This document shows, piece by piece, positions 38,924 to 39,490 of a stretch of 64,000 bases of DNA. The stretch lies in assembly GCA_964016885.1 (NCBI GenBank), contig OZ024740.1, forward strand, positions 86,614,001 to 86,678,000, given 5' to 3'. Each line of letters begins with the position of its first letter. Within the stretch, counting starts at the first letter, position 1. The notes below the pieces were generated by a model. The model saw only the letters and a list, made by a program, of their open reading frames with translations. It did no database searches and had not been told where the DNA came from. The stretch is from Eledone cirrhosa (taxonomy: Eukaryota). A program made the translations under genes and the position numbers.

Positions 38924-39490
38924 CGGAATGTTTATTTACAAACAAATCGAGCATTACAATAAATGCTCGGTGAATCCATACGTACATATATATATATGTG
39001 CATGTATGTATATATATACATACTACTGTACGTCTATATACATATATATATGTACGTATACATACTTATAATTAAGTAACAGCCGTACTAAGAGTGAGAA
39101 ATGAAATTTCGTTTCGTTTTTTCCATTTATCGTTTTCGGTGCGCCCGGCCGATTAACTCACTCGATATGCAAATTAAGCTGCTCAGCCGTTAATATGCAT
39201 AAGGAAAGTATATACTTTCAGACGTTCAATCATCTGGCAGGAAGGTATACGGTGCTGACGATAGCTAATAAGCTTGAAACTAGTACATCGTTCCTTTGTT
39301 AGTGTTGAACAAATGTGTTGCTAAACACTGTACGGCTTAATTCGGGATGTTTGTTTACAAACAACCCCGAGCATTATAATAAATGCTCGGTAAATCCATA
39401 CGTACATATATATATGTGTGCATGTATGTATATATATACATACTACTGTACGTCTGTATATATATATGTATGTACGTATACATACTTATA
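38924..39490 (+). mobile_element. ORF-less retrozyme-like element, ~420 bp monomer in partial tandem
   Basis: 38924-39070 repeats at 39343-39490; one HHR per unit; ends in (TA)n. Confidence 0.72.
39250..39290 (+). ncRNA. Minimal type I HHR
   Basis: CGGTG-CTGACGA-T-AGCT-AATA-AGCT-T-GAAACTAGTA^CATCG. Confidence 0.85.

Follow-up and report, generated by a model that had tools for sequence, protein, structure and literature searches.

The window analysed is a 64,000-nt stretch of the Eledone cirrhosa genome (contig OZ024740.1, positions 86,614,001 to 86,678,000). A 419-nt unit at 39072–39490 was preceded by a 5'-truncated copy of its last 149 nt (38923–39070). This copy shared 92.6% identity with 39342–39490, so the locus contained about 1.35 units in tandem, as had been predicted from the sequence, and (TA)n was present on both sides of the 38885–39490 insertion. 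The unit had been described as about 420 nt long and ORF-less, and the longest ATG ORF at the locus was 57 aa. The features of the window are listed in Table 1.

Further copies had been expected near 43500 and 44878; they were mapped to 43497–43813 and 44880–45170. The short inverted heads reported for two copies were found at 38885–38920 and 43497–43556. A relative had been placed at about 63890, but it started at 63690 with an inverted arm and belonged to a separate sister family (family B), the hammerhead of which lay just past the window.

Table 1. Features of the repeat families in the window
Feature	Position	Strand	Remark
(TA)n target remnant, left insertion end	38878..38887	.	
Inverted 5'-truncated arm, unit positions 24–59	38885..38920	-	Ends at tail site; 91.7% identity to 39095–39130
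Partial unit, 5'-truncated, positions 271–419	38923..39070	+	No hammerhead
Full 419-nt unit	39072..39490	+	End at tail-less site
Tail segment (unit 1–59), between two fixed 3' end sites	39072..39130	+	Sites are putative reverse-transcription starts; conserved hairpin inside
Type I hammerhead, palindromic helix III	39249..39291	+	Predicted cleavage between 39285 and 39286 (GUA^CAUCG)
CCGAGCAUU/AAUGCUCGG hairpin	39367..39391	+	Covariation versus sister family
Long AU/GU-rich hairpin	39399..39483	+	Directly ahead of unit end site
(TA)n target, right insertion end	39491..39585	.	
Second copy, inverted arm	43497..43556	-	Entire tail (1–59), TA outside
Second copy, direct arm (about 66–296)	43568..43813	+	Intact hammerhead core at 43686; 3' end non-canonical
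Third copy (about 150–419)	44880..45160	+	End at tail-less site; C3 of hammerhead core altered
Sister family B, inverted arm	63690..63838	-	Tail-less end, located in (TA)n
Sister family B, direct arm	63838..64000	+	Runs about 430 nt past window, through hammerhead, to tailed end in (TA)n

Other repeats were also present in the window. A reversed piece of Hydra-like Penelope-like element (PLE) 3' sequence at 38652–38877 adjoined the 38878–39490 insertion. Broken frames at 35471–38348 were taken, from their motifs, to be those of a Helitron-like replicase with a PIF1-type helicase, and a motif at about 44730 was presumably that of a SINE, which would agree with an octopod host.

The hammerhead and its genomic copies

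The hammerhead at the locus consisted of CUGACGA at 39255, followed by GAAA and by the cleavage triplet GUA^CAUCG, with predicted cleavage after 39285. Helix I had 6 bp (ACGGUG/CAUCGU), helix II had 4 bp preceded by a U-U pair at its base, and helix III had 2 bp with the palindrome ACUAGU. The motif had been called a textbook minimal hammerhead. The minimal form of PLEs, as given in the available text of PMC4209133, has a helix II of 7–8 bp, a helix I of 4–5 bp and a dispensable helix III, and helices of 6, 4 and 2 bp lie outside these sizes. By the helix sizes of the same source, the predicted ribozyme has the canonical type I form of metazoans and differs from the minimal one of PLEs. The Rfam search at the gathering score gave no match within the window.

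One hammerhead per unit had been proposed. This was true of the full unit; the partial unit carried none, and only one hammerhead was present in the whole locus (38878–39490). Li et al. (bioRxiv 10.64898/2026.07.22.740005) take two intact hammerheads in succession as the mark of an "active" element; such a pair was absent there and was present in many arrays of the family. Since a locus with a single hammerhead cannot release a monomer, it would be a product and not a source of monomers. The copy at 44880 carried a C3-to-U change in its core (TTGACGA).

A different hammerhead-bearing fold-back element, with a long helix II and a palindromic helix III, was found at 43062–43345 of the window and had copies at other loci (L036/L037 and L049). 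Together with several other short hammerhead families in the flanks, it indicates that such elements are numerous in the genome. Among the first 100 of 471 matches to a variant pattern for hammerheads with the same helix III, only mutated family copies and three unrelated places were found, and no third family. Three odd hammerhead-like matches (L149–L151) had neither a PLE ORF nor family sequence nearby; the one at L149 (C1:337.914 Mb) was an isolated motif in apparently non-repetitive sequence, with no PLE ORF nearby.

Exact copies of a 33-nt pattern of the hammerhead core numbered 9,643 in the 3.0-Gb genome, while the control had 0. A pattern that left out the usual first base of helix II gave 11,137 additional matches, and the first 100 of these listed were family B and a minor variant of family A, the family of the 419-nt unit. 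A three-unit tandem pattern had 1,340 matches in the genome. Monomers of family A were 417–443 nt long, and GC content was 36–37%; natural trimers had a longest ATG ORF of 51–62 aa, and the architecture of the copies showed no LTR pair. Contigs from four sequencing runs contained many variants in one run and only 7–11 low-depth contigs in the other three, a result that is uninformative about expression and barely informative about other species.

Family B had units of 466–469 nt, its own hammerhead and a 69-nt tail (L061, L092–L095, L099–L101, L122–L128, and 63690–64000 of the window). One 468-nt B monomer occurred at seven dispersed loci with 69 matches. In one insertion with arms of 7.9 and 12.9 units, all 18 full monomers were identical, and in another with arms of 18.5 and 8.1 units, 23 of 24 monomers were identical. 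B arrays reached about 31 units; one abutted an assembly gap, so that a long parent could be hidden. Judged from these sequences, family B looks currently active. At positions 338–343 of the L095 monomer, the youngest B variant showed three clustered A-to-G changes in a stem relative to its nearest relative, resembling RNA editing. A-to-I editing as a general feature was rejected, as A>G and T>C changes were about equally frequent in family A (61 and 62 in 106 monomers), which gives no bias between the strands.

The CGAGCATT/AATGCTCG hairpin was present in the MFE fold, with a z value of -6.6 for 39268–39490. It was one of two strong hairpins noted in the original prediction; the other, TCGGG..CCCGA, lay outside the MFE fold and the family alignment, overlapped the CGAGC arm and was peculiar to the 39072–39490 copy. 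The circular MFE of five monomers gave z values of -6.5 to -9.5 (30 dinucleotide shuffles each). An alignment of five A and three B monomers had 89 predicted pairs, of which 21 were changed on both sides, against 1–4 for slid-partner controls; the consensus structure was derived from the same eight sequences, and because these form two clades, most of the changes are single events. The pairs changed on both sides included some in hammerhead helices I and II, in the helix I extension and in a long-range helix enclosing the first end site. A reading of ATGCAAAT as an octamer promoter gained no support; the motif is part of a conserved stem, and the youngest sister variant no longer has it.

Insertion ends, arrays and the template

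A total of 74 family-A loci was scored. They were the highest-ranking BLAST matches, the exact core matches that come first on C1, and loci picked because they hold arrays; overlapping fetches were dropped, and the set was not a random sample. Among 125 3' arm ends, 105 fell at one of two fixed sites separated by about 60 nt: 52 ended near unit position 419 and 53 near position 59 of the unit that follows. The other 20 lay elsewhere. TA-rich DNA followed 90 of the 105 canonical ends. The 5' starts were spread across the unit, and none of 128, some of which were alignment breaks, was at the cleavage position 215 (the nearest were at 207 and 224), which suggests that reverse transcriptase passes the cleavage site. 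The copies had been described as permuted; only their 5' ends varied, and the pattern is that of fixed internal starts with 5' truncation.

The 74 loci included 42 head-to-head pairs, with 5' truncation and an inverted 5'-truncated arm. In 28 of these both ends were canonical, and the tail was on exactly one arm in 26 (p 3e-6), mostly in (TA)n; the two exceptions were compound loci, and the other 14 pairs had a non-canonical or unscored end. Family B followed the same one-tail rule at 11 of 11 loci. At two non-TA sites the target was duplicated, over 9 bp and over about 17 bp. PLEs are described as inserting into (TA)n targets, their insertions containing partial tandems and a 5'-truncated copy in inverted orientation, with the tail often confined to one end (available text of PMC8557442). 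A PLE protein extended both strands, and the tail was the stretch between its two internal start sites on the RNA (available text of PMC11167929). The two fixed 3' sites, the one-tail rule and the TA targets match these hallmarks as given in both sources, so that the copies are PLE-type insertions and not random permutations. The retrozyme-like, ORF-less, probably PLE-mobilised nature of the repeat is thus well supported by insertion anatomy.

In family A, the insertion L102 (C1:50.60 Mb) had 3.7 units in its inverted arm and 4.9 units, followed by the tail, in its direct arm. Its seven hammerhead-to-hammerhead monomers differed by 0–1 nt, and two variants were common to all of them when compared with eight other young loci. 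A 34-mer with one of these variants had 17 matches in the genome, eight in the L102 insertion and nine at single places; none of the nine carried the L102 haplotype, all differing at other diagnostic sites. As the assembly contained no parent array, the simplest reading is that one molecule was copied about 8.6 times, although the parent could be on an unassembled haplotype. A circular template for young arms is supported indirectly by such near-identical multi-unit arms with a private haplotype.

Many older arrays were heterogeneous. Higher-order repeats of two, five and seven divergent units were repeated almost exactly (L096, L108, L109, L092–L093) and could be due to multimeric circles or DNA duplication. 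In a 30-unit array, shared variants recurred periodically, and units of different subfamilies were found within one array (L117, L120, L121, and L128 on C744), which suggests template switching or insertion into existing copies. These features indicate that DNA-level duplication, nesting or template switching also act.

The preferred explanation, which is probable, is that the repeat is a protein-free hammerhead element with Penelope-type insertion ends, a non-LTR retrozyme whose predicted circular monomers would be copied by a PLE reverse transcriptase/endonuclease into nicked (TA)n DNA. Transcripts would come from a locus with at least two hammerheads, and paired hammerheads, acting as dimers through the palindromic helix III, would excise a 420–440-nt monomer (compare the available text of PMC4209133). 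A host ligase would circularise the monomer; ligation by RtcB was demonstrated in vitro for other retrozymes (PMC7229834, in its available text). The PLE protein would nick both target strands, and cDNA synthesis would start inside the RNA, from one strand at about 214 nt and from the other at about 275 nt beyond the cleavage site. With one start site per strand, two head-to-head arms would arise with the tail on one, and copying of each arm would stop at a variable point, after 0.1 to 18 turns of the template. A more specific version, in which the RNA circles form a currently transposing family, has about an even chance of being correct: the PLE enzyme would prime both strands at two internal sites of one circular RNA, for up to about 18 turns per arm, recognition would be based on the fold and not on pLTR sequence, and an array of 3–25 units could come from a single event.

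A circle is not needed if the repeat is a non-autonomous PLE copied from uncleaved linear multimers, with the hammerhead largely a passenger, arrays growing by unequal crossing-over and their read-through RNA serving as the template. For the anole PLE, unprocessed RNA was the dominant insertion substrate and hammerhead mutations had no effect on insertion (available text of PMC11167929), and eight of nine Xenopus dimers failed to cleave in vitro (bioRxiv 10.64898/2026.07.22.740005, in its available part). The higher-order repeats and mixed arrays, the assembly gap beside one sister array and the helix III of just 2 bp agree with a linear template. However, the L102 haplotype occurred on all units of both arms and in no parent array, the sister arms of 18.5 and 8.1 units were longer than every other assembled array of that variant, and helices I and II were kept by compensatory changes across subfamilies. 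The linear-multimer explanation is therefore considered unlikely, but it is the most serious competitor of the circular one.

Penelope-like elements of the genome

The original prediction was that the repeat is a parasite of the neighbouring PLEs. Mobilisation by PLEs agrees with the insertion anatomy, but the choice of the neighbours as helpers was not borne out. The PLEs beyond the TA tracts were found in both orientations about equally, so that adjacency does not name the helper, and it is explained by the shared (TA)n target. Local alignment of the unit to five PLE 3' regions gave scores of 30 or less, compared with 57 for the sister-family control, and the wrong strand gave the best scores just as frequently.

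Long open frames and many equal-scoring copies were found for at least two PLE families of the genome; a third family was decayed. The Hydra-like family (window 922–3203; L177, L178, L180) had intact 785-aa ORFs with RWK, DKT and CxCx5C motifs, and its insertions shared about 1.4 kb of sequence past the first TA tract. The 62114 family (window 62114–63690 and 39620–41491; L176, L179, L181) was young, with an ORF of about 1,100–1,200 aa that contained a Cys linker and an Asn-rich insert and started inside the pLTR; its insertions too had one tail each, and it is a candidate helper. In an ORF-bearing PLE family of the genome, the one-tail rule was followed at three of three two-armed loci, and the tail was the ORF start. 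Pfam gave no family for eight PLE pieces of the window or two full-length PLE ORFs, and a PDB search gave nothing significant, so the PLE clade labels rest on motifs.

Two junctions between PLEs and the unit were inspected. A chimeric junction at L057/L058 was rejected as such: a PLE ORF had been the insertion target there, and 9 bp were duplicated. At L029:1154–1500, a 5'-truncated Hydra-like PLE end stood head to head with the unit without a TA gap; this junction is ambiguous between a mixed-template insertion and an insertion into an old PLE.

The unit might also be the pLTR of an autonomous PLE outside the sample, the copies being truncated insertions. All insertion hallmarks are PLE-like, the distance from hammerhead to end was 214 nt against about 215 nt in the 62114-family pLTR (where the cleavage site is uncertain), and about 150 of about 10,000 places were sampled. 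A check that the unit never adjoins a PLE ORF had been suggested: 151 loci were fetched, some overlapping, of which 148 contained the element, and 11 PLE ORF pieces from the window were used as queries. Matches were found at 28 loci. A sense PLE ORF lying up to 1.2 kb ahead of the nearest element match was seen at 0 of 148, so that the sample did not show the unit to be a solo pLTR. Upstream of the unit start was the unit's own end, in self-joined tandems that included the 1,340 three-unit matches. A true PLE tail runs into the ORF, while the tail here runs back into the unit, and no third family with this helix III appeared among the first 100 of the 471 variant matches. On this evidence, the pLTR explanation is very improbable.

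The slightest chance is given to a satellite or DNA-level rolling-circle repeat (eccDNA or Helitron-like) with a chance hammerhead, for although arrays reach 30 units with satellite-like periodic variants and Helitron remnants lie nearby, the two-site 3' ends, the one-tail rule, the inverted arms and the duplications of 9 and about 17 bp match PLE target-primed insertion, and covariation is seen at the RNA level.

Relation to known elements

On sequence-testable features, the repeat belongs with the non-LTR retrozymes. Those of coral, mussel and axolotl, as described in the available text of PMC7229834, are likewise short ORF-less tandems with a type I hammerhead in each unit, a GC content under 50%, a self-paired predicted circle and PLEs in the same genome; the axolotl HHR_Amex2 also has the basal U-U in helix II. 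For these elements circRNA was demonstrated and the mobilising enzyme was proposed only, while in the present families it is the insertions that are informative, with their PLE tails, inverted arms and TA targets. Their range is 150–450 bp, and the units of 420–440 and 466–469 nt are at or above its upper part.

Vertebrate retrozymes were described as non-autonomous PLE derivatives (Li, Clavereau and Pollet, in the available part of the preprint), and they resemble the present families in their proposed PLE dependence and in occurring as monomers, dimers and multimers. That evidence consists of co-occurrence and pLTR homology, mainly in Xenopus, whereas no pLTR homologue was found here among five PLE 3' regions. 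The arrays were ascribed there to local DNA expansion, whereas array anatomy here points to multi-turn reverse transcription.

The EN+ PLEs (Hydra, Neptune, Poseidon) and non-autonomous Chlamys elements such as MRC1 (Craig et al. 2021; PMC8557442, available text) share 5' truncation, partial tandems, an inverted 5' copy, a one-end tail and microsatellite targets, and MRC1-type elements also form multicopy head-to-tail insertions. The present units differ from EN+ PLEs in having no ORF and a tail of 60–69 nt instead of 30–40. The 3' ends of MRC1-type elements are generally like those of autonomous partners, and most Chlamys have no canonical hammerhead. The anole Poseidon PAc in vitro (Frangieh et al. 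2024; PMC11167929, available text) primed both strands, had two internal reverse-transcription starts bounding the tail and used AT-rich targets; it differs in that its start sites are in the ORF, in an AC-rich stem-loop, and in that its substrate is linear uncleaved RNA.

The literature search found no account of the 419-nt family; related invertebrate repeats may be listed in the supplement of PMC7229834, and the family itself may be held in Repbase or Dfam. In the main text of an Octopus vulgaris repeat paper (PMC13282606), the words "hammerhead" and "ribozyme" were absent. The two families together have about 20,000 hammerhead copies, a sizeable repeat class that is likely filed as unknown repeat or satellite.

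A retrozyme cycle from circle to tandem cDNA by PLE reverse transcriptase was already proposed (available text of PMC4209133 and PMC7229834). The link between PLEs and retrozymes has so far come from co-occurrence and pLTR phylogeny, and what the present families add is evidence at the level of the insertion: units that lack an ORF follow the one-tail rule, and in one multi-unit insertion both arms carry a private haplotype. Families A and B are a young, defined substrate with mapped start sites, in a genome that also holds intact PLE ORFs as possible helpers. With both in one genome, three questions become testable: whether a PLE reverse transcriptase may roll on circular RNA, how the tail comes to be on one arm, and whether satellite arrays may arise from single insertions.
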